64,000 nt of DNA from Deltaproteobacteria bacterium (GTDB taxonomy: Bacteria; Desulfobacterota; Binatia; Binatales; Binataceae), in NCBI GenBank assembly GCA_021827495.1, contig JAKAVN010000001.1:9954-73953 (forward strand), written 5' to 3'. The notes below the pieces were generated by a model that did not search any database, had not been told where the DNA came from, and saw nothing but the letters and a program-made list of their open reading frames with translations. Position numbers and translations under genes: made by a program. This document shows, in pieces, positions 4,565-40,417 of the stretch (the stretch's first letter is position 1; each line of letters begins with the position of its first letter).

Positions 4565-4641
4565 TTGGTCGGGGCGGCCGGATTTGAACCGGCGACCACA
4601 CGCACCCCAAGCGTGTGCGCTACCAGGCTGCGCCACGCCCC
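4565..4641 (-). tRNA. tRNA-Pro (anticodon GGG)
   Basis: The reverse complement folds as a cloverleaf: acceptor CGGGGCG, D-arm GCGC-AGCCTGGTA-GCGC, anticodon stem CACGC/GCGTG with loop TTGGGGT (GGG), T-arm GCCGG-TTCAAAT-CCGGC, and a genomically encoded CCA. Confidence 0.85.
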
Positions 4642-4906
4642 GACCCGAAGACTATCTAACGGCGCCCGTCCCTACGATGCCCGACGGCGCGCGCGCCGCT
4701 AGGTGAACGCCACGCCAGTATAATTGCGTGCAAGTCAAAATACAGCCGCGCACGGCGCAGACGCGCGCCGCGCGTGGTTGCCACGCTCACCGTGGCCTGC
4801 GGCGCGAACGTGATACACGCACACGCCGCGACTGCGGCACGAGCGCCGCGGCGCGTGTGTGACGCCGCGTGCGGGTGACGCACGCCCACATGGGGCGCGC
4901 GGCGCG

Positions 4907-11576: not shown

Positions 11577-12869
11577 CTAGCGGAAGTCCTGGCCGAGGCC
11601 GCCAGGCGTCGAGTACTTCTTGAGATCGTGGAACTTCTTGGGCACCTGCTGGTTGATGTAGGCTCCATGCCCGGCGCGGTCAATGCTGCCATAGAAAGTG
11701 GCGTGATGGCTCTGGAGGTCCCAGAAAATGTCGATCTGGGTGCCACTGAAGTCCTGCACGCCGAGCCCCGGCACCGCCCGCGCCATCGGCAGCACCGCGA
11801 AGCTCTTCCACAACTTCAGCCGCGTGTCGTAGAGGTCCTCCCACAGCGGCACGTAACTGTTCTTGTCGGCGTAGATGATGCGCTTGCCGAAGCAGTAGCC
11901 GGCGGTGAGCGACGGCACTCTGCGCACGTCGATGGCGTAAACGTCACGCAGTTCCCATGTGCCCCACGACGGCTTGGGCCATCCGAGCGGCATCGTGTAC
12001 TGCTCGGGGAATTTGCCGGCGTTGCCGTTGTAATTGATGAGCGCGAGAATCCTGCGCTCGCCGAGCAACTGCGAGGTGAACTCGGTGATGTTGCCGTCGA
12101 AGCCGTAGCGCAGGTCGTCGCGCGTCATGTCGCTTTTGCCCTGCAGGCAGCGCACGGCCCCGTTGAGTTGCGACGTGCGGCGCAGCGAAGGGATGAACTC
12201 GTAGACGTCCTGCGGGCGGGTGAGGTCCGAGTAGATGATGGTCAGATGCGCGCTGTACTTGGCCTCTTCGGGCTCCTCGACCATGCTCCATGCGGTGTAG
12301 TCCATGTCGCCCGCCCCCGGCGTGACCATCGGATATCCGGGATCGACGATGTGCTTGAGCGCGCGGTCGACGAAAATGTCGCGGCCGCAGGAGATGTTGC
12401 CGAACGGGTTCATGGCGCAGTCGGAACTGATGTTGGCCGGCGTCGACACGACCAGATGGGGCATGTAGCGGAACCACAGGTCGGCCAGGATCTCCCATCC
12501 GGCGTGCGTCCCGGCGGGATGGGGAAACGGAATGCCGGCGGTGTAGCCGGCCAGGTTGAAACTGCCGTTGGGCAGCGGCAACATCCTGACCTGCGCCGAA
12601 TATTTCTCGGTCGCGTCTAGGTAGGGCTTGGGCAGCGGATGGTTGCGGGTGGGGCCGACGACGATCTGAGCGTCAGCGGGCATCTTCCATGGATACTGGC
12701 CGGAAAACAGCGCGGCCATGCTGTCGGGCATGAACTGCTGATAGCTATGCCAGTTCTGCGTGGTGATCACGGTGCCGGGCGGAATCGGCGCGTCGGCTGC
12801 GAACACCACCGGCACAATCGCCACGGACATAAGGAGAGCGATCAAGGCAATTCTACGTACCAGAGCCAT
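11577..12869 (-). CDS. Secreted hypothetical protein (DUF1329-like?)
   Basis: Clean 430-aa ORF with an N-terminal signal peptide (MALVRRIALIALLMSVAIVPVVFAADAP). It is aromatic-rich; the family assignment is tentative. Confidence 0.55.
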   Translation of the reverse strand: MALVRRIALIALLMSVAIVPVVFAADAPIPPGTVITTQNWHSYQQFMPDSMAALFSGQYPWKMPADAQIVVGPTRNHPLPKPYLDATEKYSAQVRMLPLPNGSFNLAGYTAGIPFPHPAGTHAGWEILADLWFRYMPHLVVSTPANISSDCAMNPFGNISCGRDIFVDRALKHIVDPGYPMVTPGAGDMDYTAWSMVEEPEEAKYSAHLTIIYSDLTRPQDVYEFIPSLRRTSQLNGAVRCLQGKSDMTRDDLRYGFDGNITEFTSQLLGERRILALINYNGNAGKFPEQYTMPLGWPKPSWGTWELRDVYAIDVRRVPSLTAGYCFGKRIIYADKNSYVPLWEDLYDTRLKLWKSFAVLPMARAVPGLGVQDFSGTQIDIFWDLQSHHATFYGSIDRAGHGAYINQQVPKKFHDLKKYSTPGGLGQDFR

Positions 12870-13131: not shown

Positions 13132-14457
13132 TCAGTAGTAGTCGACCGGATCGATCTGGCGCTTGGCGCCGTACCAGAACAGCATGTTCTCGGTCAGCCC
13201 TTGCCAGGTGAACTTGCCCGGCGGCATCAGCAGGCGCTTGAACATCGACTTGAACGAGTAGAACTCCTTGGTGCAGCGCCACACGCCCTCTTCGACCTGC
13301 TGCGGCGAGAGCTTGTTGGGCACGAACATGCAGCGGAAGTTGTTGGTGTACATGTCGGCGTCGGGGATGATGACGCGGCCCTCCTGCTCGAGCTTCGTGC
13401 GCATCGGCGTGCCCCTGCGCGGCGTGACCGTGTTGAAGAACGCTTCGGGCGCCTTGACCTCGTGCAGGAAGGCGAGGGTGTCGTCGAAGATCTGCGGCTG
13501 GTCTTCTTCGAGGCCGAACAGGAAGTTGAGCGAGTAATAAATCCCGTAGTGCTCCAGTCGCTTGAGCAGCTTCTTGTAGTCCTTGGCGTGGTTCTGAATC
13601 TTGCTCATCGACAGCAGGCTGTCCTGGCTGATCGATTCGACGCCGATGTTGACGTGGAACACGCCCGCCTTGGCCGCCAGCTCGAGCAGGTCCTCGTCAT
13701 GGTTGGAGTTGATGGTCCACAGGCAGGAGAAGCGGATGTTGAGCGGGATCAGCGCGCGGAACAGCTCGCGCGCGAACTTGTGCTTGCCGGTGATTTGGTC
13801 GTCGATGAACTGGAAGCGGCGGAAGCCGGTGACCTCGATGACCTGCTTGATTTCCTCGATGATGTCCTCAATCGGGCGGGTGCGATAGCTGCCATCATAG
13901 AAGACCGGGATTTCGCAAAACGAGCAGCGGTACGGGCATCCACGGCTCGCCTGCACGGGCATCGCCTTGAACAGGTAACGGTTGAGCTTGAGCAGCTCGT
14001 GGCGCGGGCGCGGCAGGTTCTTCAGATCGTGCAGCTTGGCGGACTTGTAAGTGCGCTTGAGCTTGCCGTCCTGCCAGTCGCGCAGCAGCGGCTCCCATAC
14101 CAGGTCGGCCTCGCCCTGGACCACCGCGTCGGCGTGCTTGAGCGCCTCCTCGGTCTGGAGCGTGGCATGGAACCCGCCCATCACCACCGGGATGCCGCGC
14201 TTGCGGAACTCGTCGCCGAGCTGGTAGGCGCGCAGCGAGGCGCCGATGGTGGTGGTCATTCCGACCAGGTCCCAGCCGGCGTCGAAATCGATCTCCTCCA
14301 GCCGCTCGTCGCACAGCGTCACGTCGAAGTCGGGCGGCGTCAACCCCGCCAGCAGCGGGATCATCAAACCCATGATGAGCCGCCAACGCGTCTTATGAGG
14401 CGTGCCGTCCAGATGGATCGTCGTCGGTTGGATCAGCAGGATCCGCGGTTTCTTCAC
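13132..14457 (-). CDS. B12-binding domain radical SAM protein (probable methyltransferase class B)
   Basis: N-terminal cobalamin-binding-like domain (PRILLIQP...) and a CxxxCxxC radical SAM cluster motif (GCPYRCSFCEI). The likely start is GTG at 14457 with a GGGAGG RBS; the ATG at 14538 would overlap the upstream gene by 58 nt. Confidence 0.8.
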   Translation of the reverse strand: MKKPRILLIQPTTIHLDGTPHKTRWRLIMGLMIPLLAGLTPPDFDVTLCDERLEEIDFDAGWDLVGMTTTIGASLRAYQLGDEFRKRGIPVVMGGFHATLQTEEALKHADAVVQGEADLVWEPLLRDWQDGKLKRTYKSAKLHDLKNLPRPRHELLKLNRYLFKAMPVQASRGCPYRCSFCEIPVFYDGSYRTRPIEDIIEEIKQVIEVTGFRRFQFIDDQITGKHKFARELFRALIPLNIRFSCLWTINSNHDEDLLELAAKAGVFHVNIGVESISQDSLLSMSKIQNHAKDYKKLLKRLEHYGIYYSLNFLFGLEEDQPQIFDDTLAFLHEVKAPEAFFNTVTPRRGTPMRTKLEQEGRVIIPDADMYTNNFRCMFVPNKLSPQQVEEGVWRCTKEFYSFKSMFKRLLMPPGKFTWQGLTENMLFWYGAKRQIDPVDYY

Positions 14458-14480
14458 ACTGCCTCCCGGCGGCGCCGCGC

Positions 14481-15644
14481 TTAGGCGGGCCGCTCTTGAA
14501 TCCCGTTCCGCCCGTGCCCCTTCGCGGTCATCCACCACAGCACCAAGGCAAAGACGTAAGTGCCAAAGGCCGTTCCCCAGGCGAAATAGTAAACCCTGTC
14601 GAACAGCGCCAGCACGACCAGCAGGTAGGCGAAGTCACGGCCGCTCACCCGCTCAACCTGCGCGATAAACCGCTCGGTCTGTTCGCCGTTGACGCGAGTC
14701 GCACGCCAGGTCGTGAGCGCACACAGTCCAAAACCAACCAACAGAATGGCGAGCAGGTAGATGTAGGCCCGGCTGCTGCTCGCCCGATAGCATCCGGCCA
14801 TGATGCCGGCGAAGAGCGCGACATGCACCAGGTTGTCGGTGAAAACGTCCAGCCGCGCGCCCCATCGCGACTCAGCCATCTTGAGCCGCGCCAGCTCGCC
14901 GTCGACGCCATCGAGGGTCACCGAGACCAGGAACATCAGGGCGGCGGCCAGGCGCGGCCAATAGCCCGCAAAGCTGAACAGCCACGCGCTCAGCAATCCC
15001 AGCGCGGTATTGACGAGCGTCACCTGGTTGGGTGTGATCGCGGTGCGTGCGAGGCGATAGCTGATTCGCCACGACAGCCGCCGGTCCACCCAGCGCGCCA
15101 TCAGCGCGTCCTTGTCGGCGCTCTCGCGGCGCAGCTCGCGCGCCAGCCTGAGTTCGGCCTCGCGCACATCCTCGGCCCGTCCGTCGAGCGCAAAGGGCAA
15201 CTGGCCGCTTGGCGCGAGCCGCGTTGCCGGGCCGCCGGAGCCATCGAGCAGGCGGCCGAGTGGTCCCGCCGCGACGCTGCCGCGGCGCGCGAGGTCGGTG
15301 CTCTCGACGCTGACGACCCCGCCGGGCCGTGCGGCATGGCTATCGAGCAGGCCGCGCAACTGCGAGGCCGCCAGCACCAGGTTGCCCCTAAACGCGACAC
15401 AGGGCGCGTCGGCCGGCATCTGTTCGAGGACCTGGGCAAACGAGCCGACGAAGTTCACCTCGGGATGGTCGCGGAACGAGCCCAACGAGGCGCGCAGGCC
15501 GCCGCGCTCGGCCTCGCTCGCCTCGATAAAGAACCGCTTCACTCCCGCGCGTTGGCAAATAAGCATCAGGCGCTCGATCAGTGATCGCCCGAAGATCGTG
15601 TTGCCCGCACGGCCCGAAGTGTTGATTAGCGCTGTGTCAACCAA
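14481..15644 (-). CDS. IPCT/DIPPS-like bifunctional protein: N-terminal nucleotidyltransferase-like domain fused to a CDP-alcohol phosphatidyltransferase domain
   Basis: C-terminal half has the CDP-OH transferase motif DGxxAR...G...D...D (LDGVDGELARLKMAESRWGARLDVFTDNLVHV) and multiple TMs. The linker (RWVDRRLSWRISYRLARTAITPNQVTL) resembles archaeal IPCT/DIPPS. The N-terminal ALINTSGRAGNT aligns to the GxGTRL signature but is degenerate. The TTG start is uncertain. Confidence 0.7.
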   Translation of the reverse strand: MVDTALINTSGRAGNTIFGRSLIERLMLICQRAGVKRFFIEASEAERGGLRASLGSFRDHPEVNFVGSFAQVLEQMPADAPCVAFRGNLVLAASQLRGLLDSHAARPGGVVSVESTDLARRGSVAAGPLGRLLDGSGGPATRLAPSGQLPFALDGRAEDVREAELRLARELRRESADKDALMARWVDRRLSWRISYRLARTAITPNQVTLVNTALGLLSAWLFSFAGYWPRLAAALMFLVSVTLDGVDGELARLKMAESRWGARLDVFTDNLVHVALFAGIMAGCYRASSSRAYIYLLAILLVGFGLCALTTWRATRVNGEQTERFIAQVERVSGRDFAYLLVVLALFDRVYYFAWGTAFGTYVFALVLWWMTAKGHGRNGIQERPA

Positions 15645-15646
15645 GG

Positions 15647-15670
15647 AAAGCCTTATTGAATAAAGGCTTT
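15647..15670. promoter_or_regulatory. Palindrome AAAGCCTT-N8-AAGGCTTT in the AT-rich divergent promoter region between the IPCT/DIPPS-like gene and the HAD gene
   Basis: An 8-bp perfect inverted repeat read directly. The surrounding 15645-15782 is ~45% GC against ~67% for the window. Confidence 0.3.
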
Positions 15671-15782
15671 TAGACTAATCGCAGGGCGGAGTCAATGTAC
15701 TGACCGTGCGGTTTGTCTACCTGTTCGTCGACCCTCCATCCCCGCCTGTTCATAACACTTAACTTTTTCGTAACTCCGCTCG

Positions 15783-16592
15783 TTGAGTACTTTGCCATCT
15801 TATTTGTGGAGGCACATAGCGAGGGCTGCTAGACTGGCGCCTGTGGCCAGTCCTGCGCGAGCGATCTTATTCGACTTCGGCGGCACACTCGACCATCCAC
15901 ACCATTGGCTGGACCGTTTCGTGCGCCATTACCGTGCGGCAGGCATGCAGCTCAGCCGTAGCGAGCTGGACGCCGCCTATTCGCACGCGACCCGCACCGC
16001 TTACGAGGCCGGCGAAGAAGTCCATCGCCACAATCTGCACGAGCTTATTCGTTATTTGGTCGCCCATCAGTTCAACTATCTCCATCGCCACGGCCCCGAC
16101 AACGTGCGCGAGCATCTCGCGGGCCTCGGCGACCAGCGCCATCGCTTGGCCGAGCGCATTACCGCCGGCTTCGCCGAGGAGTCGGCCCAAGGACTGGCAC
16201 GCAGCCGCGCGCTCCTCAAGGAACTGTCCCGCGATTTCAAGCTCGGCGTGGTCTCCAACTTTTATGGCAACCTGCAGGTCGTCCTGTTCGAGGCCGGCAT
16301 CCGCGAGTTGCTCCAGGTCGCGATCGACTCCAAGCACCTGCGCGTCTTCAAACCCGACGAGCGGATCTTCACCGCCGCGCTCAAGGTGCTTGACCTGCCG
16401 CACAACCAGGTGGCGATGGTGGGGGACTCGCTGCACAAGGATTGCGCACCCGCGCGCAAGCTCGGCATGCGTTCGATCTGGCTGCGCGGGCATCACGCCG
16501 GACCCGGCGAGCATCCGCAGGCGCGCGCGGCGGCCGCGCTCGCCGACCATACGATCGATTCGCTCGATGAGTTGAAGGAACTCACATGGTAG
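15783..16592 (+). CDS. HAD-superfamily hydrolase (motif I variant DFGGT)
   Basis: ILFDFGGTL motif I, the VVSNF motif II region and a KPDERIF...GDS motif III/IV region. Confidence 0.7.
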   Translation: MSTLPSYLWRHIARAARLAPVASPARAILFDFGGTLDHPHHWLDRFVRHYRAAGMQLSRSELDAAYSHATRTAYEAGEEVHRHNLHELIRYLVAHQFNYLHRHGPDNVREHLAGLGDQRHRLAERITAGFAEESAQGLARSRALLKELSRDFKLGVVSNFYGNLQVVLFEAGIRELLQVAIDSKHLRVFKPDERIFTAALKVLDLPHNQVAMVGDSLHKDCAPARKLGMRSIWLRGHHAGPGEHPQARAAAALADHTIDSLDELKELTW

Positions 16593-17335
16593 ACGGGCTC
16601 CGCGGCGCGATTATCGCGGCCGGCCGGGGCGAGCGCCTGCGCGGCGCGGTGGCTGATCTTCCCAAGCCGCTGGTCGAGCTCGGCGGCGAGCCGATGCTTG
16701 TGCGACAGGCGCGGATAATGCGTGAGGCGGGTGCGGAGACCGTCGTGGCGCTGGTCAATTCCGAGACTGCGAGGCTCATCGCGAGCCGCGCGGTCCGGAT
16801 TGCGTCGTGGATCAAACTCCGGGTGCGCGATACGCCGAGTTCGATGGAATCACTGCTTAGCTTGGGCGAAGACCTGCGCGGCGCCGGGCATTTTCTGCTC
16901 GCCACGGTCGACGCGGTGGTCGAGGCGGCTGAGCTGCGCCGTTTCGCCGGGCGCGCGCTGGAGCTGGCCGGCGGCGCCCCTCCACGCTTCGACGGCGCGC
17001 TCGCGGTGGTGCGATGGCGCGGCGACCAGCGGCCGCTGTTCGCCGAGATCAGGCCGGACGGCGCGATCGCCGCGCTCGGCGGGCGGCCGAGCGCGATGGT
17101 CACGGCGGGCTTCTATTGGCTGCCCGCGGCGATTTTCGATTTGGCCTCGCGGGCGCGCGCCGCGCACCTTGACGCGATGCGCAAGCTGCTCGCGATGGCG
17201 GTCGCAAGCGGGATGCGGCTCGGGGCGATCGAACTCGAGGCGACGATCGACGTCGATGAGTCGGCCGACTTGGCCGCCGCGCGCGCGCTGGTCGCCGGAG
17301 CGCCGCCGCGCAGCCCGGGCGGGGGCGGTAAGTGA
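16586..17335 (+). CDS. Nucleotidyltransferase (MobA-like/sugar-phosphate NTP-transferase family)
   Basis: AIIAAGRGERL (GxGxRL) signature followed by KPLVELGG. It overlaps the HAD stop. Confidence 0.7.
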   Translation: MVDGLRGAIIAAGRGERLRGAVADLPKPLVELGGEPMLVRQARIMREAGAETVVALVNSETARLIASRAVRIASWIKLRVRDTPSSMESLLSLGEDLRGAGHFLLATVDAVVEAAELRRFAGRALELAGGAPPRFDGALAVVRWRGDQRPLFAEIRPDGAIAALGGRPSAMVTAGFYWLPAAIFDLASRARAAHLDAMRKLLAMAVASGMRLGAIELEATIDVDESADLAAARALVAGAPPRSPGGGGK

Positions 17336-18171
17336 AGATGCGTGTGCTGGGGATTTACCGCGAGACCGAGTTTTCTCCGGGCAAGGTCGCGCACGATGCC
17401 GCAATCCTCGACGCGGTGCTGGCTGAGCTCAAGCGCCATGGCGCGGAGGTCTCGGTCATCAGCGCCGCACGCTTTGTCGGTGATGCGCCGGCCAGCGCGG
17501 ACCTGGTGCTCGCGATGTGCCAGGGTGAGCGCGCACTCGGCCGCCTGGTGGCGCTCGAGCAGCAGGGCGCGATCGCGGTCAACTCCGCGCTCGCGATTCG
17601 CAACTGCTACCGCGACCTCCTCTGCGCCGGCCTGATCCATGCCGGGGTTCCCGTTCCGGCCGGTGCGCTGGTCAGGACCGGCGCCCGCCCGCCGGACTTG
17701 ACCCCGCTCGGCGTGCTGGATCTTGACGCGCCGATGTTCATCAAGCGCGGCGACCTGCATGCACTTGCGCCCGACGACGTGCAGCGGGTAGAAAGCCGTG
17801 GCGCGCTGCGCGCGGCGCTGGCCCGGCTGGCGCAGCGCGCAGTGCCGGTAGCCTACGTGCAGCAGGCGGTCGACGGCAGGGTGGTGAAGTTTTACGGCGT
17901 CAGCGGCGGCGAGTACTTTACCGCGCTGGCCGAAGAAGGATCGATATCCGAGCGCGTGCAGTTCGACTTGGCCCGGAGCGCCGCGGCTGCGGCCGCCACG
18001 CTGGGCCTCGAGGCGTGGGGTGGCGATGCGGTAATCGATGGCGAGCGGTTTATGATCATTGATTTCAACGACTGGCCCAGCTTTAGCCGGGTGCGCGAGA
18101 GCGCCGCCCGCGCGATCGCGCGGCGCTGCCTGATGCTCGCGCGCCGGCCGCGCCAAGGCTCTGAGTTATAG
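17332..18171 (+). CDS. ATP-grasp domain protein
   Basis: Size and motif pattern (FIKRGD..., VVKFYGV, a C-terminal IIDFNDWPS-like Mg/ATP region) are consistent with the ATP-grasp fold. Function is not assignable. Confidence 0.5.
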   Translation: MKMRVLGIYRETEFSPGKVAHDAAILDAVLAELKRHGAEVSVISAARFVGDAPASADLVLAMCQGERALGRLVALEQQGAIAVNSALAIRNCYRDLLCAGLIHAGVPVPAGALVRTGARPPDLTPLGVLDLDAPMFIKRGDLHALAPDDVQRVESRGALRAALARLAQRAVPVAYVQQAVDGRVVKFYGVSGGEYFTALAEEGSISERVQFDLARSAAAAAATLGLEAWGGDAVIDGERFMIIDFNDWPSFSRVRESAARAIARRCLMLARRPRQGSEL

Positions 18172-18201
18172 TTTTCCAGGAGGGCCCACGCAGGCCGCAG
18201 C

Positions 18202-19704
18202 ATGAGCAAACCGCACCCGCCGGCGCTTAGGACAGCCGGCGAATTGAAGATCACCAACGGATCCGGAACCGCGAACGGACCAGCTATTTCCAAAGGGCCC
18301 GCGCCCGCCAATGGGGCTGTCACCGCGAGTGAACCGCGGCCTCCTGGCATGCCCGGCCTCCAGCCCAACATCACCACTGCGGTTCCCGGGCCAAAGTCGC
18401 GCGCGCTGTTCGCTGAGGAGCAGAGCCATATCGCGCCGGGCCGCCAGCGTATCTCGCTGCTCGCCAGCCTCGCCTTCGATCATGGCGAGGGCGCCACGCT
18501 GACTGACGTTGATGGCAACGTGTTCGTCGACTTCTTCGCCGGCGTCGGGGTCGCGAGCCTCGGCCACGCGCATCCGGCTCTCGTGCGGGCGCTCGCGCAC
18601 CAAGCCTCGCGGCTCATCGTGGGCACCTTCGCCACGCCCGAGCGCGCGGAGGCCTTCCGGCTGCTCGGCGAAGCCGCGCCCGCGGGCCTTGAGCGTGCGC
18701 ATCTGTACAGCGGCGGCGCGGAGGCGGTCGAGGCGGCGCTCAGGCTCGCGCGCTCGAAAACCAAGCGCCACGAGGTGCTGAGCTTCTGGGGCGGCTTCCA
18801 CGGCAAGACCGGCGGTGTGATTGGGCTCATCGGCGACGAATCCAAGCAGGGCTACGGCCCGTTGCCGGGCGGCCAGTACATGGTGCCGTACGCCGACTGC
18901 TACCGCTGCCCATTCAAAATGGAATATCCGCGGTGCGGGATGTACTGCGTCGATTTCGCGCGCCAGCAGCTCAAGCGCAGCTCCGCAGGCGCGCTTGCGG
19001 CCGTGGTGGCCGAGCCGATGCAGGGAACGGCGGGCAACGTGATTCCGCCCGACGATTATCTTCCCGCGGTCCAGCAAGTCGCGCGCGAGCACGGCGCAAT
19101 GCTCATCGCGGACGAAATGATCACCGGCTTCGGCCGCACCGGGCGCATGTGGGGAATCGAGCACAGCGGCGTCGCACCCGACATCATGACGGTCGGCAAG
19201 GGGATGGGCTCGGGCTTTCCGGTCTCCGGCGTGCTGCTCAGCGAGGAACTGGGACGGAGCGAGCCCTTTGGCAAACCCAGTGCGTCGTCGTCGAGCTACG
19301 GCGGTAATCCGCTGGCCGCAGTCGCGGTCGCCGAGACGCTGCGCACGATCAAGCGCGAAGGGCTGGTCGAAAATTCGGCCGCCGTCGGCGCGTTTTTGCT
19401 CGAGCGCCTGATGCGTCTGCGGGAGAAATACGAATTCGTCGGCGACGTGCGCGGCAAGGGGCTGCTGATCGGCGTCGACCTGGTGCGCGATCGCAAGAGC
19501 AGAGAGATGCTCGGCCGTTCGATAACCGAGGCCATCTTCAAGGAGGCGCTCAAGCGCGGCCTGTTGGTGATGGGTTATTTTCCGCGCATGCGGATCAATC
19601 CACCGCTGGTCATCACGCGCGAGCAGGCCGCGGCGGGTGCGGAAATTCTCGACGAGGTCTTCGCCCACGTCCGCGACCATCTCGACTGGCGCAACGCCCC
19701 GTAG
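18202..19704 (+). CDS. Class-III (omega/GSA-type) PLP-dependent aminotransferase with a ~70-aa low-complexity N-terminal extension
   Basis: GHAHPALV, the FWGGFHGKT glycine-rich region, DEMITGFGRTG, and the pyridoxal lysine in MTVGKGMGSG. Confidence 0.8.
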   Translation: MSKPHPPALRTAGELKITNGSGTANGPAISKGPAPANGAVTASEPRPPGMPGLQPNITTAVPGPKSRALFAEEQSHIAPGRQRISLLASLAFDHGEGATLTDVDGNVFVDFFAGVGVASLGHAHPALVRALAHQASRLIVGTFATPERAEAFRLLGEAAPAGLERAHLYSGGAEAVEAALRLARSKTKRHEVLSFWGGFHGKTGGVIGLIGDESKQGYGPLPGGQYMVPYADCYRCPFKMEYPRCGMYCVDFARQQLKRSSAGALAAVVAEPMQGTAGNVIPPDDYLPAVQQVAREHGAMLIADEMITGFGRTGRMWGIEHSGVAPDIMTVGKGMGSGFPVSGVLLSEELGRSEPFGKPSASSSSYGGNPLAAVAVAETLRTIKREGLVENSAAVGAFLLERLMRLREKYEFVGDVRGKGLLIGVDLVRDRKSREMLGRSITEAIFKEALKRGLLVMGYFPRMRINPPLVITREQAAAGAEILDEVFAHVRDHLDWRNAP

Positions 19705-19761
19705 GCCGGGCGAATAGAGCGGCGCGCCGCCGAAACGGGGGGCGCATGGAAAGAATCGGCA

Positions 19762-20238
19762 ATGGCTGGAGCTGGCGGAAATCGGGGACTGTTCTGCGAC
19801 TTGGCCGGCACGTTGGTGAAAATGGATGAGACCCGCCAGCTTGCGCTCGGCCCCGACGGAAGAATCGTAGTCGAGCTGCTGCCCGGTGTGGCCGAGAGGC
19901 TCCGCCCGATACGCGATCATCTAATCTTCGTCGTCACCAACCAGGCCGGGATAGCGCGCGGGCGGCTGCGCCTGGAACAGGTCGAAGCGGCGATCGCCGA
20001 GGTCGCCCACCAGCTCGGCGACATCCTGACTGGATGGCGGATTTGTCCGCACGACGACGCCGACCGATGCGCATGCCGCAAGCCCAGGGGCGGGATGCTG
20101 ACCGAGCTGGGCGCGGCCTACGGCGTGGATATGGCGGGATCGACCATGGTCGGTGATCAGGAAATCGACGCCGCGGCGGCGCGCGCGGCGGGCGTCGGCC
20201 GTTTCATCTGGGCGCACGACTTCTTCGGCTGGCAATGA
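19762..20238 (+). CDS. HAD-IIIA family hydrolase (GmhB / histidinol-phosphatase-like), motif I variant DLAGT
   Basis: LFCDLAGTL motif I, VVTNQ motif II and a CxH...CxCRKP zinc motif (CPHDDADRCACRKPRGGML) typical of GmhB-type enzymes. Confidence 0.65.
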   Translation: MAGAGGNRGLFCDLAGTLVKMDETRQLALGPDGRIVVELLPGVAERLRPIRDHLIFVVTNQAGIARGRLRLEQVEAAIAEVAHQLGDILTGWRICPHDDADRCACRKPRGGMLTELGAAYGVDMAGSTMVGDQEIDAAAARAAGVGRFIWAHDFFGWQ

Positions 20239-20451
20239 GCCGCGCTGGCGCAACGTGACACGCGCGACGCGGTTTCCGGCCGACGGTTTATCTTCGGCCT
20301 CGGCGCGGGATGGCTGCGCGAGGAGGCCAAGGTGCGCGGCGTCGGCTTTGCGCATCGGTGGGCGCAGACGGTTGAGTTCGCAGGCGCGATTGGCGAGCTG
20401 TGGCGCAAGCCTCAACGGGAATCGGCGCGGCTCGCCGCGCTGGCCGTGTAA
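20239..20451 (+). pseudogene. Remnant of a luciferase-like monooxygenase (LLM, F420/flavin-dependent oxidoreductase) gene
   Basis: In frame after the HAD stop with no start codon: ...RRFIFGLGAGWLREEAKVRGVGFAHRWAQTVEFAGAIGELWRKPQRESARLAALAV*. The FIFGLGAGW...EE...LW pattern matches the C-terminal third of LLM proteins, but the ORF ends ~80 aa early. Confidence 0.35.
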
Positions 20452-20504
20452 CACGGTTGCCGGCGGGTTTCGGCGTTCGCGCAGGATCGCCCTTTGATCG
20501 TACA

Positions 20505-21029
20505 ATGAGCTTCAAGCCTCGAGCCCAGGACATAATAGGCGCCGTTGCGCTGATGTTCGCCTCCATCCTGACGGGCCTGGTGCTCAATCACTTCAGCTCG
20601 AGTCCGCTGGCGCTCGCCTATCGGTCGCCCGAGCAGCGGCTTCAGACCGAGCTGGCGGAACTCGTCGCGGGGCCGCCGCTGCAGTCGTTTCCGGTCGCCA
20701 CGATCGGTCTCGATGAATTTCGCCGGATGGCCGAGGCCAAAACCGCCGTCATCTTCGACGCGCGCGCTTCCGTCTACTACCGGCAGGGCCATGTGCCGGG
20801 CGCGCTGAATCTGTCGCGCGAGGACTTTGGCCAGGACTACCTGCGCCTGCGGGCGGCGCTGGAGAAGGACAAGAACAGTCCGATCGTGGTCTACTGCTCG
20901 GGCGGAACCTGCCACGACAGCAAGATGGTCGCCCAGGCGTTGACCAGCCTGGGGTTCACGCGGGTGCGAATTTTTCCGGGGGGATGGGAGGCGTGGTCGG
21001 CGGCCGGGCTGCCGGCGCAGCGCGGCTGA
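20505..21029 (+). CDS. Membrane-anchored rhodanese-domain sulfurtransferase
   Basis: N-terminal TM (IIGAVALMFASILTGLVL) and the rhodanese active-site loop CSGGTCHDS. The start is placed at MSFKPRAQD. Confidence 0.7.
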   Translation: MSFKPRAQDIIGAVALMFASILTGLVLNHFSSSPLALAYRSPEQRLQTELAELVAGPPLQSFPVATIGLDEFRRMAEAKTAVIFDARASVYYRQGHVPGALNLSREDFGQDYLRLRAALEKDKNSPIVVYCSGGTCHDSKMVAQALTSLGFTRVRIFPGGWEAWSAAGLPAQRG

Positions 21030-21033
21030 AGCG

Positions 21034-21498
21034 ATGAGTGCCGGTTCAATCCTGGAGCGGCGTTGGCTTCAACTGGGCCTCGGGCTGATTGTCGGAGGCG
21101 CGTTCGTCTATGCCGGCTGGGTCGGTTTCTCGGACGCGCGGCAACTCGCCGACAGCGTCGCATCGCTCCGCATCCTGCCCACGAGGCTGGTCGATCCATT
21201 TGCGCTCAGCCTGCCGATGTTCGAGATCCTCGCGGGAGTGTTGACGGTCGCGGGGCCGCTGCGGCGCTCGGCCGCGCTCGGCCTGGGTGTTATGACGGTG
21301 ATCTTCTGCGCCGCCATCGCGTCGGCGCTGGCGCGCGGGCTCGTCATCGACTGCGGATGCTTCGGTGCGAACATCCCGTCGCGCGCGCGGATGTGGCTCG
21401 ACTTGGGCCGTGACGTGCTGCTCCTGATGGGCGTGCTGATCGTCTACCGGCCATCGGGCAATCACTGGCCCGGCGTGCCGCGTGATCCGCGACAATGA
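21034..21498 (+). CDS. MauE/DoxX-family membrane protein
   Basis: Four TMs and the conserved DCGCFG motif. It is adjacent to the rhodanese gene. Confidence 0.65.
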   Translation: MSAGSILERRWLQLGLGLIVGGAFVYAGWVGFSDARQLADSVASLRILPTRLVDPFALSLPMFEILAGVLTVAGPLRRSAALGLGVMTVIFCAAIASALARGLVIDCGCFGANIPSRARMWLDLGRDVLLLMGVLIVYRPSGNHWPGVPRDPRQ

Positions 21499-26487: not shown

Positions 26488-26633
26488 GCGAACCCCCGGT
26501 AGGCGAACCATAGACTGGAGCATAAGCTGGCCGGTGCATCGGCCGACGCTCATGTGCGGAGTGCCGGCGCTTTGCGGACGCGGAGTTGGCCCGCTGGCGC
26601 GGACTGGCTGGTTAAGGGTCGAGGAAAGTGGCG

Positions 26634-27965
26634 ATGGCCGAGTTACCCGAGTTACCATTGACCTTCATTCGCGGACCCTACGAGCCCCTGCTGATCGACC
26701 ATGCCGAGGGCGCCTGGCTCTATACCGCCGACGGCAGGAAAATCCTTGACGCGGCCGCCGGCGCGGTGGTGACCAATATCGGCCAGGGCCGCGAGGAAAT
26801 CGCGCAACTGGCCGCCAACGAGATGCGCCGCGCCAACTACGTCGTCCCGATCTGGTCGACGCCGCAGCGCCAGCGGCTGGTCAAGCGGCTCGCGCGATGG
26901 ACCGCACCGGGCCTCACCCGGTTCTTCTTCACCTCGGGCGGTTCGGAGGCGGTCGAAGCGGCGCTCAAGTTCGCGCTGATGTATCACAAGGTCCACGGCC
27001 GCCCGCGGCGCACGAAAATCATCGCGCGCGAGGCCTCCTATCACGGCAACACCATCGCGGCGCTGTCGGCCGGCGGCAGCCTGCGCCGCGCCGACTACGA
27101 ACAGGTGCTGTTGGATTGGCCGAAAATCAAACCGTCGTATTGTTACCGCTGTCCGTGGGGCAAGACTTACCCCGGATGCGATATCGATTGCGCCAATGCG
27201 CTCGAGCAAGAGATCAACCGCCACGGCGAGGATTCGATCGCACTGTTTATCGCCGAGCCGATGATGGGCTCGGCAGGCGGCGCGGTACCGCCGGTCAAGG
27301 AGTACTGGCCGCGGCTGGCGGAAATCTGCCAGCGCCACGGCGTGCTGCTGATCGCCGACGAAGTGATGACCGGCTTCGGCCGCACCGGCCGGCGTTTCGC
27401 CGTCGACCATTGGAATGTCATCCCCGACATCCTGATCGGCGGCAAGGGGCTGACCGGCGGCTACCTGCCGATGGGGATGATCGCGGTTAAGGAGCGGCTG
27501 GTCGAGCAGTGCGAAGAGCAGGGCGCCGAGTTCATGTTCTACACCTACAGCGCGCATCCGACCGCCTGCGCGGTGGCCGACCGCGTGCTCGAGATCATGG
27601 AGCGCGAGCATCTGGTCGAGCGCGCGGCCGAGATGGGCGCGCGGCTCGGGGCGCAGCTCAAGGAGGAGCTAGCGGGCCATCCGATGGCCGGCGACATCCG
27701 CGGCGCCGGAATGTTCTGGGGCGTCGAGCTGGTGCGCGATCGCGCCTCGCGCGCGCCGTATCCGCCGGCGCTGAAGGTTGCGAGCAGGGTGGTCGCGGCG
27801 GGACTCAAGCGCGATCTGTTCGTCTATCCGGCGAGCGGGATGGCGCGGCCGGGCGGCGATGCGGTGATGGTCACGCCACCGTTCGTGATCGGCAATGACG
27901 AGATCGAATACCTCGTGAGCCGGCTGCGCGCCACGCTCGACGACGTCCATCCGAATCTGCAGTAG
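26634..27965 (+). CDS. Class-III PLP-dependent aminotransferase
   Basis: FFTSGGSEAVEAALK, DEVMTGFGRTG and the pyridoxal lysine in GGKGLTGG. ATG at 26634 has a better RBS spacing than GTG at 26628. Confidence 0.8.
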   Translation: MAELPELPLTFIRGPYEPLLIDHAEGAWLYTADGRKILDAAAGAVVTNIGQGREEIAQLAANEMRRANYVVPIWSTPQRQRLVKRLARWTAPGLTRFFFTSGGSEAVEAALKFALMYHKVHGRPRRTKIIAREASYHGNTIAALSAGGSLRRADYEQVLLDWPKIKPSYCYRCPWGKTYPGCDIDCANALEQEINRHGEDSIALFIAEPMMGSAGGAVPPVKEYWPRLAEICQRHGVLLIADEVMTGFGRTGRRFAVDHWNVIPDILIGGKGLTGGYLPMGMIAVKERLVEQCEEQGAEFMFYTYSAHPTACAVADRVLEIMEREHLVERAAEMGARLGAQLKEELAGHPMAGDIRGAGMFWGVELVRDRASRAPYPPALKVASRVVAAGLKRDLFVYPASGMARPGGDAVMVTPPFVIGNDEIEYLVSRLRATLDDVHPNLQ

Positions 27966-37569: not shown

Positions 37570-39240
37570 CTATTTAACTGCTTTGAGTTTGCGCCGCCCG
37601 TGGCGGCCCGAGACCAGCCGCCGCGCGGCCTCGCCGAGCGTCCCCGCGCGATGCGATCGGCTGTACTGCTCCAGGGTTAGGCCGTGCGCCGCTTCCAGAG
37701 CGACCGACAGCGCTGCAAGCACGCATACTTCGGCAAGCACGCTGATGCGCGGCGCGAGGCCGAGCACGCCGCCTTCCTGCTGGACCGGCACCTTGATCAC
37801 GAGGTCGGCGAGGTGCGAAAGCTCGGAAGCCGGGTTGCCGGTCACCGCGATGAGCTGGGCGCCATGCTCCTTGATTGCCGCGGTGGCCTCGCACAGCTCG
37901 CGCGTGTTGCCGCTGTTGGAGATCGCGATGACGACGTCCCTGGGATCGACCTGGCCGAGACTGCCGTGCAGGGTTTCAGTCGCGTGCAGGAAGGTCGCTT
38001 GCGTGCCGATCGAACACAGCAGACTCGCCGCGTAGCGCGCGACGTGCTCCGGCTTGCCGACCCCGGTCAGGTGGACGCGGCCGCCGCGCGCTTCGGCGGT
38101 GCGAATCATGTCGACCGCGGCGCGAATCTGGTCGAGATCGATTTCGCGCCGCAGCGTCCCAAGCTCGCTCAGGCACAGTTCCAGGAAGCGGTTGACCTCG
38201 CGCGAGGGATCCAGTGGTCCGTTCACCTCGGGTGGCGGCGCGAGGTCCGGCAGCGCCTGATCGGGCAGCGCACCGCGGAACAGCGCGAGCACCGCACCGC
38301 GCACCGCGAATCCAGGGGGAAACGCGCCCAACTGTCCCACGCATACCGCGCCTGCGGCGTTGGCCAGCGTCCCGATGGCGCGCCACGGCAGGCCCCACCG
38401 GAGCCCCGCGAGCATCCCGCCCAGAAAAGCATCGCCGGCGCCGGTTGTGTCGACCACTTTGACCTGGAACGCAGGCAGCTTGAGCGCCGTATCGCGCGCC
38501 GCGATCGCGCATCCCCGCTCGCCGTCGGTCACAACCACGGCCTGGCTCTGGTAGCGCGCGCGCATCAGCTCCGCGAGCCTAAGCGTATCGCGTCCCGCGC
38601 CCATCAACGCGCGCGCCGCGGGACGGGCCGGCTTGAGAATCGTCGCCAGCCGCAGCGCGCGCTCGAGTTCGGCGCGCGTGCCGAGCATCGGACAGGCATC
38701 GGCGGGTGGCAGATCGACGTCGAGCACGCTCGGAATCGAATTGGCCCGCGCGAACAGCAGCAGGGCGATCACGGTGCGCAGCGGGAGCTGCGAAATTTCG
38801 CTCGAGACCATCCAGGCGTGGCGGATGAAGCCTGCGTGGCGGCGGCGAATCTCGCCGGGCGCAAGCTCGGCGGTGGCGCCGCGCGCCATGTAGATCGCAC
38901 GGCCGCCGCCCGCGTCGACGAAGACCTTGGCAAACGAGCTGGCCGAACCGTCGGTGGTGAGATGATGCCGTATCCCGAGCTGTTCGATCCCGCGGCGCAG
39001 AAACTCGCCGTGGCGGTCAGCGCCAATTTTGCCGAACACCCCGGCCTCGAGCCCCAGCACGCGCGCCCATCCGAGATGGTTGAGCACCAAGCCGCCGACC
39101 GCCGCGCGCTCCATCCGGCCGTCGCCGTGATGGGCGTCGAGCGCGACTTTCTGCTCGGCGCGGACGAACTTCGGCGTGCGGTAGAACAAGTCCACCACCA
39201 TGCTGCCGCAGCCGGCGACGTCGAGGTTTGCTTCAGCCAT
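37570..39240 (-). CDS. Fusion protein: PfkB-family carbohydrate kinase (N-terminal) + SIS sugar-phosphate isomerase/binding domain (C-terminal)
   Basis: N-terminal ribokinase-fold motifs (GCGSMVVDLF, DTTGAGDAFLGGMLAGL). C-terminal SIS motifs (VHLTGVGKPEHVARYAASLL, AISNSGNT). Confidence 0.75.
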   Translation of the reverse strand: MAEANLDVAGCGSMVVDLFYRTPKFVRAEQKVALDAHHGDGRMERAAVGGLVLNHLGWARVLGLEAGVFGKIGADRHGEFLRRGIEQLGIRHHLTTDGSASSFAKVFVDAGGGRAIYMARGATAELAPGEIRRRHAGFIRHAWMVSSEISQLPLRTVIALLLFARANSIPSVLDVDLPPADACPMLGTRAELERALRLATILKPARPAARALMGAGRDTLRLAELMRARYQSQAVVVTDGERGCAIAARDTALKLPAFQVKVVDTTGAGDAFLGGMLAGLRWGLPWRAIGTLANAAGAVCVGQLGAFPPGFAVRGAVLALFRGALPDQALPDLAPPPEVNGPLDPSREVNRFLELCLSELGTLRREIDLDQIRAAVDMIRTAEARGGRVHLTGVGKPEHVARYAASLLCSIGTQATFLHATETLHGSLGQVDPRDVVIAISNSGNTRELCEATAAIKEHGAQLIAVTGNPASELSHLADLVIKVPVQQEGGVLGLAPRISVLAEVCVLAALSVALEAAHGLTLEQYSRSHRAGTLGEAARRLVSGRHGRRKLKAVK

Positions 39241-40417
39241 CCTTAAGCGCGCGCCGCGTCTGCGGGCGCTCCGCGTCGAGTTCGCTCAGCCATCCGGGCT
39301 CGAGCGTGGCCGCCGCGCGCCGGCGCAGATCCTTGAAGCGGCGGGCAAACTCGCGCCGCTCGGCGCCGCTGAGCGCGGGGGTTCCCGGCGCAAGCGCTTC
39401 GCTCCGGCATACGCCCATCTCGGCCAGCGCCGCTTTGAGGCAGGCGAGGGTGGGGCGGAAGCTGTGGCCGGCGCGGCTGAATTCGCACGCGGCGCGGAAC
39501 TCCTCGAGCACCTGGGCGTAGCGATGCATCAGGGCGGGATCGCCGTTGCGGCACACCCGCAGCGCGCGCTGCCACTCGCGCGGCATCGCGTTGCTGGGTC
39601 CGGCGACGATTCCGTAGGGCAGCGAATCGCGGGTCCAGTAGCGGTTCCAGTAATGCCGCGTCCAGCCGCGCGCGCCCGCGGGCGGCGCGAACAGATCGAA
39701 AATCAGATATGGGTCACCGGCGTAAATCGCGAAATCGCCGTGGCGGTTGAAGTGCGCCGCCGCGCGCGTGTAGTTGCCGAGCACCGCTTTGCCGGCGGTG
39801 ACTTTGACCCCGCGCACGTAATCCATCCGGCTCATCTGCTTGATGTCGCGCGTGTGCATGTGCGGCGCGCGGCCGGGCGCGGCGATCTCGGCGTTGTCGT
39901 AGAGGAAGACCGGGATGCGCCGCTGGCAGCGCTCGAACAGCGCGTCGATCTCGCGGTTGACGAAACCGACCGGATCGTCCGAGTCGCGAATCGACAGCGG
40001 TGCGACCACCACCGCCGCGGCCTTCAGCTCCAGCGCATACTCGAGATTCTCCAGCGTCTCGGCGCGCGTATGCCCGGTGATGCCGACCCAGGCCTCGACC
40101 GCCACGCCGGCGGCGTTGATGCGGCGGCATTCGTCGACCACCACGCGCGCGATTTGCTGGCGGCGCGGATTGTCCAGCTTGTCCCATTCGCCGGTGGTGC
40201 CGGCGGCGAAAATGATGTTGGCGCCGTGGCCGCGCTGCACTGCCCAGCGCACGACCGCGCGCTGCTCGTCCTCGAGCACCGCTCCCGTGCGATCGAGAAT
40301 GGTGACGACGGGCGTCGACAGCCCCGCGTTAGGCACGTAGCGCTGAACTTCCTGCGCGCCCGCGCGCCGCGCCCCCAGCCGCTGTCCAACAAGCTTGAGT
40401 GGTGTCGAATCTGTCAT
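39233..40417 (-). CDS. DapA/NAL-family (dihydrodipicolinate synthase-like) class I aldolase
   Basis: IFAAGTTGEWDKLD motif region and a Schiff-base lysine context (VRGVKVTAG). It overlaps the downstream PfkB-SIS start. Confidence 0.65.
   Translation of the reverse strand: MTDSTPLKLVGQRLGARRAGAQEVQRYVPNAGLSTPVVTILDRTGAVLEDEQRAVVRWAVQRGHGANIIFAAGTTGEWDKLDNPRRQQIARVVVDECRRINAAGVAVEAWVGITGHTRAETLENLEYALELKAAAVVVAPLSIRDSDDPVGFVNREIDALFERCQRRIPVFLYDNAEIAAPGRAPHMHTRDIKQMSRMDYVRGVKVTAGKAVLGNYTRAAAHFNRHGDFAIYAGDPYLIFDLFAPPAGARGWTRHYWNRYWTRDSLPYGIVAGPSNAMPREWQRALRVCRNGDPALMHRYAQVLEEFRAACEFSRAGHSFRPTLACLKAALAEMGVCRSEALAPGTPALSGAERREFARRFKDLRRRAAATLEPGWLSELDAERPQTRRALKDG

Follow-up and report, generated by a model that had tools for sequence, protein, structure and literature searches.

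What is the product of a seven-gene cluster in which a cytidine diphosphate (CDP)-alcohol phosphotransferase (CAPT) and a B12-type radical SAM enzyme (rSAM) lie divergent to genes for a HAD-IA protein, an NTP-transferase, an ATP-grasp enzyme, a class-III aminotransferase and a HAD-IIIA protein? The cluster is found in a 64-kb stretch of contig JAKAVN010000001.1 of a Deltaproteobacteria bacterium, hereafter the window. Its seven intact genes fall within positions 13132-20238, and the locus, including the remnant of an LLM oxidoreductase, spans 13132-20409. Homologues of the window proteins carry the name Candidatus Binataceae. An earlier reading, made from the letters of the DNA and called here the sequence-only reading, had named these gene families and proposed an undescribed pathway to a phosphodiester solute or a polar head group. 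The open reading frames (ORFs) of the window were first listed and then searched with Pfam and NCBIfam profiles at curated cut-offs. All seven families proved to be present and intact, and no description of such a pathway was found in the literature searched.

The most likely product is a hopanoid-associated membrane lipid, because HpnH, HpnJ and HpnR, together with HpnL-, HpnN- and HpnM-like genes, stand at the head or on the flanks of the cluster in relatives. On the sequences we give a rough probability of 0.45 to this reading, in which a CDP-activated amino-polyol or amino-sugar phosphate would be transferred. The product could be a composite bacteriohopanepolyol (BHP) whose head group, of a new kind, contains N and P, or else a lipid that is made and trafficked with hopanoids. 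That it is a membrane lipid rather than a solute is probable; for the hopanoid link, taken by itself, the chances are close to even.

Conservation of the cluster in relatives

Relatives were sought by scanning one genome per species, which gave 72 loci against which the window proteins were run by tblastn; 54 of these are distinct and have enough flanking sequence. The HAD-IA, NTP-transferase, ATP-grasp and aminotransferase genes stand beside the CAPT in 42 of the 54. Among these core loci the rSAM is present in 41, the HAD-IIIA protein in 38, an intact LLM in 26 and a Gfo/Idh/MocA dehydrogenase (GFO) in 21. Outside Binataceae the same genes form an operon on one strand in metagenome-assembled genomes of Syntrophobacteraceae (L017 and L020) and Desulfarculales (L023) and in loci L083-L085, and this form is also carried by two cultured organisms, Syntrophobacter fumaroxidans MPOB (L080; CP000478.1, 3606835-3627647) and Desulfoferrobacter suflitae (L082). 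These versions always include the GFO and usually have an LPG_synthase_TM (HpnL-like) gene beside the CAPT, with a sulfotransferase, an O-methyltransferase, a small radical SAM enzyme, an MMPL transporter, OEP, MlaC, MlaE/ABC and YhdP as variable extras. The sequence-only reading was to fall if the genes lacked conserved co-localization elsewhere; they are instead kept together across two phyla, the arrangement recurring in the 42 loci of the Binataceae survey and, rearranged, in Desulfobacterota.

Hopanoid and lipid genes beside the cluster

The hopanoid genes are best seen in locus L084, where the order is IspH, HpnH, HAD, NTP-transferase, ATP-grasp, class-III aminotransferase, GFO, CAPT, HpnL-like, OEP, HpnN-like (MMPL) and HpnM-like (MlaC), and where the HpnH model gives 532 bits (cut-off 225). 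S. fumaroxidans has, directly before the gene for HAD-IA, one that encodes a bona fide HpnJ (738.5 bits against 577.6), and copies 68-77% identical to it are found at that position in D. suflitae, L083 and L085. Within the 21 kb fetched, tblastn found an HpnH homologue in 12 Binataceae loci, on the GFO side in 11 of them; the two Binataceae proteins run against the HpnH model scored 381 and 391 bits, and both follow a TetR gene. HpnH is followed by a farnesyl diphosphate synthase gene in L054. In L057 a module of TetR, HpnH and prenyl synthase lies on the other flank, adjoining a true HpnR (820.9 bits against 650) which directly follows an rSAM of the window type. Other neighbours that recur also handle lipids, namely LPG_synthase_TM/HpnL-like, MMPL/HpnN-like, MlaC/HpnM-like, MlaE/ABC, OEP and YhdP proteins.

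The resemblance to the hpn genes extends to further pairs of families: the class-III aminotransferase parallels HpnO, the B12-type rSAM with its DUF4070 region HpnJ, LPG_synthase_TM HpnL, MMPL HpnN and MlaC HpnM. It has limits: the known hpn genes include no CAPT, NTP-transferase, ATP-grasp, GFO or HAD, and identity between the window rSAM and the S. fumaroxidans HpnJ (TIGR03471 family) reaches only 24-27%. HpnI and HpnK feed HpnJ in the known hopanoid route; both are absent from all loci examined, and shc was not seen in any fetched locus. A 2025 survey of hopanoid microsynteny gives the functions of HpnL and HpnM as unknown and does not mention CAPT, NTP-transferase, ATP-grasp, GFO or HAD (PMC12324291). 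The literature searched held no link between hopanoids and a CDP-alcohol transferase and no combination of the cluster's gene families; searches on the lipids of Binatia and S. fumaroxidans, on aminopentanetetrol and on inosamine lipids returned nothing relevant.

The same neighbours can be read without hopanoids. The product might be a glycerophospholipid of the ordinary kind, except for a new head group that bears an amine, made either from CDP-X and diacylglycerol in a Kennedy-like reaction or from CDP-diacylglycerol and X-phosphate as by phosphatidylinositol-phosphate (PIP) synthase followed by dephosphorylation by a HAD protein, with an MprF-like flippase exposing the cationic lipid. We consider this possible though on the unlikely side. 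An LPG_synthase_TM gene stands directly beside the CAPT in L003, L006, L017, L020, L023, L070, L080, L084 and L085; MlaE, MlaC and YhdP are general phospholipid transport genes; and the window version works without a nearby hopanoid gene. The PIP-synthase and archaetidylinositol-phosphate-synthase models are the next-best NCBIfam matches of the CAPT, the PIP synthase far under its cut-off. The alternative inositol lipid cluster of Bacteroides vulgatus likewise combines an NTP-transferase, a CAPT, a HAD protein and an LPG_synthase_TM neighbour, a likeness at the level of protein families; for that cluster a Kennedy-like reaction of CDP-inositol with diacylglycerol has been proposed and is unconfirmed (Heaver et al. 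2022, PMC9246714). It differs in being anchored by myo-inositol-1-phosphate synthase (MIPS) and in having no aminotransferase, ATP-grasp, GFO, radical SAM or hopanoid genes. A glycerophospholipid would leave the bona fide HpnH, HpnJ and HpnR in or beside the cluster in two phyla without explanation, and a CDP-diacylglycerol donor would leave the conserved, sometimes fused NTP-transferase with no obvious role; moreover, CAPTs with lipid acceptors usually have extra transmembrane (TM) helices (PMC4634129). Should the hopanoid link be one of co-regulation only, the cluster would make a new bacterial phospholipid head group instead.

The CDP-alcohol phosphotransferase

The CAPT gene (14481-15644, minus strand) encodes 387 amino acids, of which residues 203-335 match CDP-OH_P_transf with 47.4 bits (Pfam cut-off 22). 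The motif DGxxDGxxAR..G..D..D is intact, its residues D245, G246, D248, G249, A252, R253, G262, D266 and D270 being invariant among 13 aligned homologues, and it lies on a polytopic membrane domain, as in the CDP-alcohol phosphotransferase superfamily (PF01066). The AlphaFold2 model (pLDDT 78.6) has six TM helices and a cytosolic alpha/beta domain. A phmmer search of the Protein Data Bank (PDB) placed AF2299 first (E 1e-16) and the IPCT-DIPPS structure 4mnd next (E 9e-12). Foldseek with the whole model put 4mnd and 4o6m (AF2299) on top, AF2299 at E 7.5e-11 and TM-score 0.57-0.66, with PIP synthases following; the N-terminal domain (N-domain) alone matched KdsB, CobY, RmlA and MurU.

The sequence-only reading had called this protein an IPCT/DIPPS-like fusion, and its two-domain shape bears that out; a competent IPCT half does not. 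GxGxR and the lysine of the PK motif are missing from the N-domain in 13 of 13 aligned homologues, where the consensus is ALIxxPxRAxxxIFGRxLLERL. By alignment and predicted structure the domain is a degenerate pseudo-cytidylyltransferase, cytidylyltransferase-like by fold only, which would explain the constant presence of an intact stand-alone NTP-transferase gene close by. The bifunctional IPCT/DIPPS equivalog (NF041135) gives 81.5 bits against a cut-off of 580, and over residues 157-352 only. With this score, the degenerate N-domain and no MIPS seen near the cluster, a true IPCT/DIPPS in a standard di-myo-inositol-phosphate (DIP) pathway was rejected. The statement in the sequence-only reading that MIPS is missing holds for the gene calls, which cover about 45 kb of the window (around the cluster and in the 25-45 kb part) with the rest of the window and of the genome not scanned, and for the annotated loci of relatives. 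A standard PgsA or PssA with an unrelated N-terminus, which would have undone the earlier proposal, was rejected too: the pgsA model scores 23.8 bits (cut-off 109.1) and the pssA model 28.0 (cut-off 107), and the structural neighbours are AF2299 and DIPPS. Transfer of the acceptor-binding arginines of PIP synthase onto the CAPT was abandoned, the alignments past the fourth TM helix being too weak.

In sequence as in structure, then, the CAPT is nearest to AF2299 (4o6m/4o6n/4q7c), with which it has in common the two-domain layout and a comparably degenerate stretch of the N-domain. The structural alignments give no more than about 18-19% identity, and AF2299 comes from an archaeon and is without known partner genes. 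Its family has no curated model or defined function, its physiological role is unsettled, and the literature disagrees on its handling of lipids: one study states that lipids are processed by neither AF2299 nor DIPPS and that the acceptors of six-TM CAPTs are soluble (Clarke et al. 2015, PMC4634129), whereas AF2299 may act in phosphatidylinositol (PI)-phosphate synthesis according to another (PMC8633023). The IPCT/DIPPS of Archaeoglobus fulgidus (AF0263, 4mnd) also carries a cytosolic domain of cytidylyltransferase fold on a six-TM CAPT. There the N-domain has the GxGxR and PK motifs, while in the cluster catalysis would be delegated to the separate NTP-transferase.

These structural neighbours suggest a second alternative, a soluble polyol phosphodiester made in the manner of DIP or diglycerol phosphate with a modified alcohol in place of inositol, the NTP-transferase acting as IPCT, the CAPT as DIPPS and a HAD protein as final phosphatase. 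The order of nucleotidyltransferase, CAPT and phosphatase is the logic of DIP synthesis, the closest structures are those of AF2299 and IPCT-DIPPS, and the rule for six-TM enzymes given above fits a soluble acceptor. We nevertheless regard this as quite unlikely, and the solute named in the sequence-only reading becomes its weaker option. The recurrent neighbours are flippase-like, lipid-transport and hopanoid genes (HpnH, HpnJ and HpnR among them), the equivalog score and the lack of a MIPS gene among the gene calls around the cluster and in relatives' loci speak against it, and AF2299 itself may belong to PI-phosphate synthesis. The cluster also adds to the DIP set an aminotransferase, an ATP-grasp enzyme, a GFO and a B12-type rSAM, and its hosts are mesophilic soil or syntrophic bacteria.

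Several genomes have two CAPT-fusion paralogues in or near the cluster: S. fumaroxidans (13579-14868, plus strand, and 17536-18768, minus strand, of L080), L083, L085, L061, L068, L069 and L073. In S. fumaroxidans the orthologue of the window CAPT is a 410-aa gene on the opposite strand, and the 429-aa copy inside the operon is a variant in which the last Asp of the motif is displaced. A "bare" pair of CAPT and LPG_synthase_TM, with the other cluster genes absent, occurs in L003, L006, L039 and L070. In L003 (4191-14010) the pair adjoins a PGM/PMM phosphomutase, a HAD protein, a histidine phosphatase and an 892-aa DUF294-like protein, and in L006 (8757-12439) a sulfotransferase. The bare loci were rejected as a clean paralogue group; their CAPTs nest among those of full clusters in a rough neighbour-joining tree.

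The radical SAM enzyme and the plus-strand enzymes

The rSAM gene (13132-14457, minus strand) encodes a 441-aa protein of class B, the B12-binding type, with the cluster motif CPYRCSFC and a DUF4070-like C-terminus (Radical_SAM 66.8 bits). Its B12-binding match is weak (29.3 bits, under the 32.1 cut-off), and many class-B rSAM models of NCBIfam also match. The best of these, all far under cut-off, are BchE (99.6 bits, cut-off 481), PhpK (88.1, cut-off 600) and HpnJ (78.8, cut-off 577.6), with ApyD also among them; HpnR gives 48.5 bits (cut-off 650). The methylase models PhpK and HpnR thus do no better than the non-methylases BchE and HpnJ, and the C-methylated derivative suggested by the sequence-only reading loses its footing. 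In L023 a 42% homologue lies just upstream of HAD-IA, at the place that HpnJ takes in S. fumaroxidans. The rSAM is 85-97% identical across Binataceae loci, where the adjacent genes show 42-78%, the CAPT 50-83% and panC 64-91%; even in distant Binataceae loci with panC 64-73% identical, the orthologues (in L007-L077) retain 85-93%. At fourfold-degenerate sites the rSAM exceeds the neighbouring genes in identity only slightly, and GC content at third codon positions is 0.916, which speaks for very strong purifying selection on the rSAM sequence; recent horizontal transfer was rejected as the source of the high identity, since synonymous sites are about as diverged as in the neighbours.

The sequence-only reading had described the rSAM and CAPT genes as translationally coupled. 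They are indeed paired on the minus strand and operonic in the window, though not overlapping: a 23-nt spacer with the ribosome-binding site GGGAGG precedes the GTG start of the rSAM, and a 4-nt overlap is found in a relative. On the plus strand, stop and start codons overlap at the junction of HAD-IA and NTP-transferase and again at that of NTP-transferase and ATP-grasp.

The HAD-IA protein (15843-16592, plus strand; start uncertain, 15783-15843) matches Hydrolase with 60.6 bits and HAD_2 with 57.8 bits (Pfam). Its motif I (15843-15880) is atypical, (I/L)LFD-F-G-GTLD, and has no Asp+2 general acid in any orthologue, that of S. fumaroxidans included; the start chosen by gene callers (15921) removes this conserved motif. 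The HAD-IIIA protein (19762-20238, plus strand), of the GmhB/histidinol-phosphatase-like type, scores 68.5 bits with TIGR01662 (cut-off 44.6) and 82 bits, under 178, with the GmhB model PRK08942. Its motif I (19798-19815) is D-L-(A/G/V)-GTL, Asp+2 again being absent in all orthologues checked. Both proteins have the remaining HAD motifs, and neither has the DxDx(T/V) of HAD phosphatases. HAD-IIIA occurs in no cluster outside Binataceae and is thus an addition specific to that family.

The stand-alone NTP-transferase (16586-17335, plus strand) is of the MobA-like or sugar-1-phosphate nucleotidylyltransferase type (NTP_transf_3, 42.9 bits). It is canonical, as had been claimed, with AAGRGERLR...PKPL intact and alignable to MurU, ManC, HddC, IPCT and LicC. 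The aminotransferase (18202-19704, plus strand) is a class-III (omega-type) pyridoxal-phosphate enzyme (Aminotran_3, 322.4 bits, E 4.6e-96) with an N-terminal extension of about 50 low-complexity residues. It falls under the cut-off of every NCBIfam equivalog, its best PDB matches are GABA-AT-like and racemase-like class-III enzymes, and its identity is 72-89% across Binataceae and 56% to S. fumaroxidans.

The orphan ATP-grasp enzyme (17332-18171, plus strand; 279 aa) belongs to a family absent from Pfam and NCBIfam, and has the three-domain fold, the conserved Lys and the D/E-x-N metal-binding motif of ATP-grasp proteins. When the family profile was run against 1.84 billion representative proteins, it returned 333 representative clusters (50% identity) at E<=1e-30. 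Six representative proteins among the best matches are fusions of NTP_transf_3 and ATP-grasp. Fusion P0460 consists of HAD, NTP_transf_3 and ATP-grasp, its HAD part being 37% identical to the window HAD-IA with the common motif AILFDFGGTLD...WLDRF, and in fusion P0485 a homologue of the entire CAPT fusion comes after the ATP-grasp (31% identity, residues 16-384, E 4e-37).

The enzymes of the plus strand could also, as a third alternative, make a nucleoside diphosphate (NDP)-amino sugar for an envelope glycan (lipopolysaccharide, capsule or S-layer), by kinase, GmhB-like phosphatase, nucleotidyltransferase, dehydrogenase and transaminase as in the NDP-heptose and UDP-diamino-sugar pathways, with the CAPT only loosely connected. 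The NTP-transferase aligns best with the sugar-1-phosphate enzymes MurU, ManC and HddC, HAD-IIIA is GmhB-like, GFO and aminotransferase are a classic amino-sugar pair, and a PfkB-SIS fusion gene is found at a distance of 3 kb from the cluster in L086 and of 17 kb in the window. The NDP-heptose module (HldE/HddA, GmhB, HddC/HldE) has the same trio of kinase-like, HAD and nucleotidyltransferase proteins, which here also occurs as a single fusion. It differs in that the putative kinase of the cluster is an ATP-grasp enzyme rather than PfkB or GHMP, there is no SIS isomerase in the cluster, both HAD proteins have lost Asp+2, and the end user is the CAPT, not a glycosyltransferase. None of the cluster versions has a conserved glycosyltransferase, the CAPT is in every version and can be fused to the ATP-grasp, and HAD-IIIA and the PfkB-SIS fusion are confined to Binataceae. 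An NDP-amino sugar is therefore improbable.

Because of the fusions and the cross-phylum synteny, the two divergent operons belong together, and by these sequences the seven genes very probably form one biosynthetic pathway. Chance adjacency of two unrelated operons, compatible with their opposite strands in Binataceae and with the truly unrelated rhodanese, MauE and DUF1329 genes that adjoin them, has next to no probability, given the tight one-strand operons of Desulfobacterota and an ATP-grasp-CAPT fusion that crosses the supposed boundary.

Proposed pathway

For a hopanoid-associated lipid the enzymes could act as follows, the exact order of steps being doubtful. A polyol or sugar phosphate would be oxidized by the GFO of relatives or, in Binataceae, also by the F420-type LLM; both have been lost at the window locus. 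The class-III aminotransferase would aminate the oxidized product, and the ATP-grasp and HAD proteins would then process the intermediate, either as a kinase and a phosphatase that move the phosphate, as in the NDP-heptose route, or with the ATP-grasp enzyme forming an amide. The NTP-transferase would activate the result as a CDP-alcohol, from which the CAPT would move the phospho-alcohol to an acceptor hydroxyl at the membrane. Finally, the B12-type rSAM, or HpnJ, would remodel the head group; the rSAM holds the position of the Syntrophobacter HpnJ in the gene order. A tentative and more specific version is a route to composite BHPs independent of HpnI and HpnK, in which a CDP-activated aminated sugar or cyclitol phosphate is joined by an AF2299-type CAPT and then remodelled by HpnJ or, in Binataceae, by the highly conserved HpnJ-like rSAM.

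Several points weigh against a hopanoid-associated product. The HpnL-, HpnN- and HpnM-like proteins score under the curated cut-offs (114 against 196, 533 against 752 and 72 against 160, respectively) and may transport another lipid. No hopanoid gene is present in the window, where tblastn over the 64 kb found no homologue of HpnH, GFO or, beyond the remnant, LLM, so that the linkage to C35-hopanoid genes, the best lead, rests on the relatives; and the Binataceae loci are phylogenetically related, so their counts overstate the number of independent observations. To our knowledge, no phosphorus-containing BHP has been described. The six-TM rule of Clarke et al. makes a soluble product or a lipidic CDP-donor a better fit than CDP-X with a lipid hydroxyl. 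By analogy with CDP-diacylglycerol, the rule would be met by a lipidic CDP-donor with a soluble acceptor, or by a lipid acceptor that reacts through a head-group hydroxyl. The phosphatase label is uncertain for both HAD proteins in view of the absent Asp+2, and the ATP-grasp enzyme may be a ligase or a kinase, both compatible with its fold.

If the tentative route independent of HpnI and HpnK is the true one, its product would be the first hopanoid with a phosphodiester-linked (N- and P-containing) head group, physiological roles would be assigned for the first time to the AF2299-like CAPT family and the orphan ATP-grasp family, and the abundant uncultured Binataceae of soil would be producers of an unrecognized class of BHP. 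Hopanoids with their polar side chains rank among the main biomarkers of geochemistry, yet several steps of their synthesis, like many environmental "composite" BHPs, still lack an assigned gene or source organism; a CAPT module wired into the hpn genes of Binatia and Syntrophobacteria would add a new branch to the hopanoid pathway. The cluster gives a testable context to three orphans, the pseudo-cytidylyltransferase CAPTs, the ATP-grasp family absent from Pfam and the strongly selected B12-type rSAM, and its presence in the cultured S. fumaroxidans MPOB and D. suflitae lays it open to experiment.

The divergent control region

The two operons are separated by an AT-rich control region (15645-15842) with a candidate promoter and a hairpin. 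The sequence-only reading had seen here an AT-rich palindromic divergent promoter, and its elements are found: the intergenic 15645-15782 has a GC content of 48.6%, against 66.4% for the whole window, a candidate minus-strand promoter (TTGACT, 17 nt, TAAAAG) is present, and a palindrome with 8-bp arms, AAAGCCTT-N8-AAGGCTTT, lies at 15647-15670 in the 5′ leader of the CAPT (15645-15700). This hairpin takes in, and pairs with, AAGG, the Shine-Dalgarno sequence that lies 6 nt before the TTG start codon of the CAPT, and it folds with -16.7 kcal/mol (z = -2.2). The block is kept in the 10 closest loci and not in more distant Binataceae, with no clear covariation in the hairpin; the hairpin could be a translational control element or an operator. 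Rfam and ARAGORN searches of the 64 kb found no riboswitch or other known RNA near the cluster or the B12-type rSAM; their sole match was a tRNA-Pro (GGG) at 4566-4642 on the minus strand.

Gene loss and neighbouring genes

The decayed LLM remnant reported by the sequence-only reading was recognized by tblastn: positions 20251-20409 (plus strand) encode 53 residues, 55% identical to residues 97-149 of the 285-aa LLM of L008 (E 2e-15), an internal segment of an F420-type LLM oxidoreductase. The intact LLM of relatives belongs to TIGR03619 (250 bits, cut-off 166.9). Judged by comparison of the loci, the remnant marks the deletion of an LLM-GFO(-TetR-HpnH) extension still present in relatives, and the window version is a reduced one from which LLM, GFO and what lay beyond have been lost by deletion.

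Where relatives carry the LLM-GFO extension, the window has a rhodanese gene and a MauE/DoxX gene (20400-21498, plus strand), and a DUF1329 gene (11577-12869, minus strand) is inserted between rSAM and panC. Rhodanese, MauE and DUF1329 were rejected as members of the cluster, being conserved in none of the 54 well-flanked loci; since none of the related loci has these genes at this position, the gene order indicates that the locus has been locally rearranged in the window lineage.

Farther away, at 37570-40417 on the minus strand and beside the L31 and RF-1 genes, are a PfkB-kinase/SIS-isomerase fusion (556 aa, resembling the pair GmhA/HldE) and a DHDPS-like protein (394 aa). The same block, 17 kb from the cluster in the window, lies at 15713-18611 in L086, only 3 kb from HAD-IIIA. 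This placement suggests that Binataceae may have a feeder route for sugar phosphates. A second class-III aminotransferase of about 443-445 aa (approximately 26628-27965, plus strand) is encoded about 7 kb downstream, between a CoA-transferase gene and an alpha/beta-hydrolase gene.

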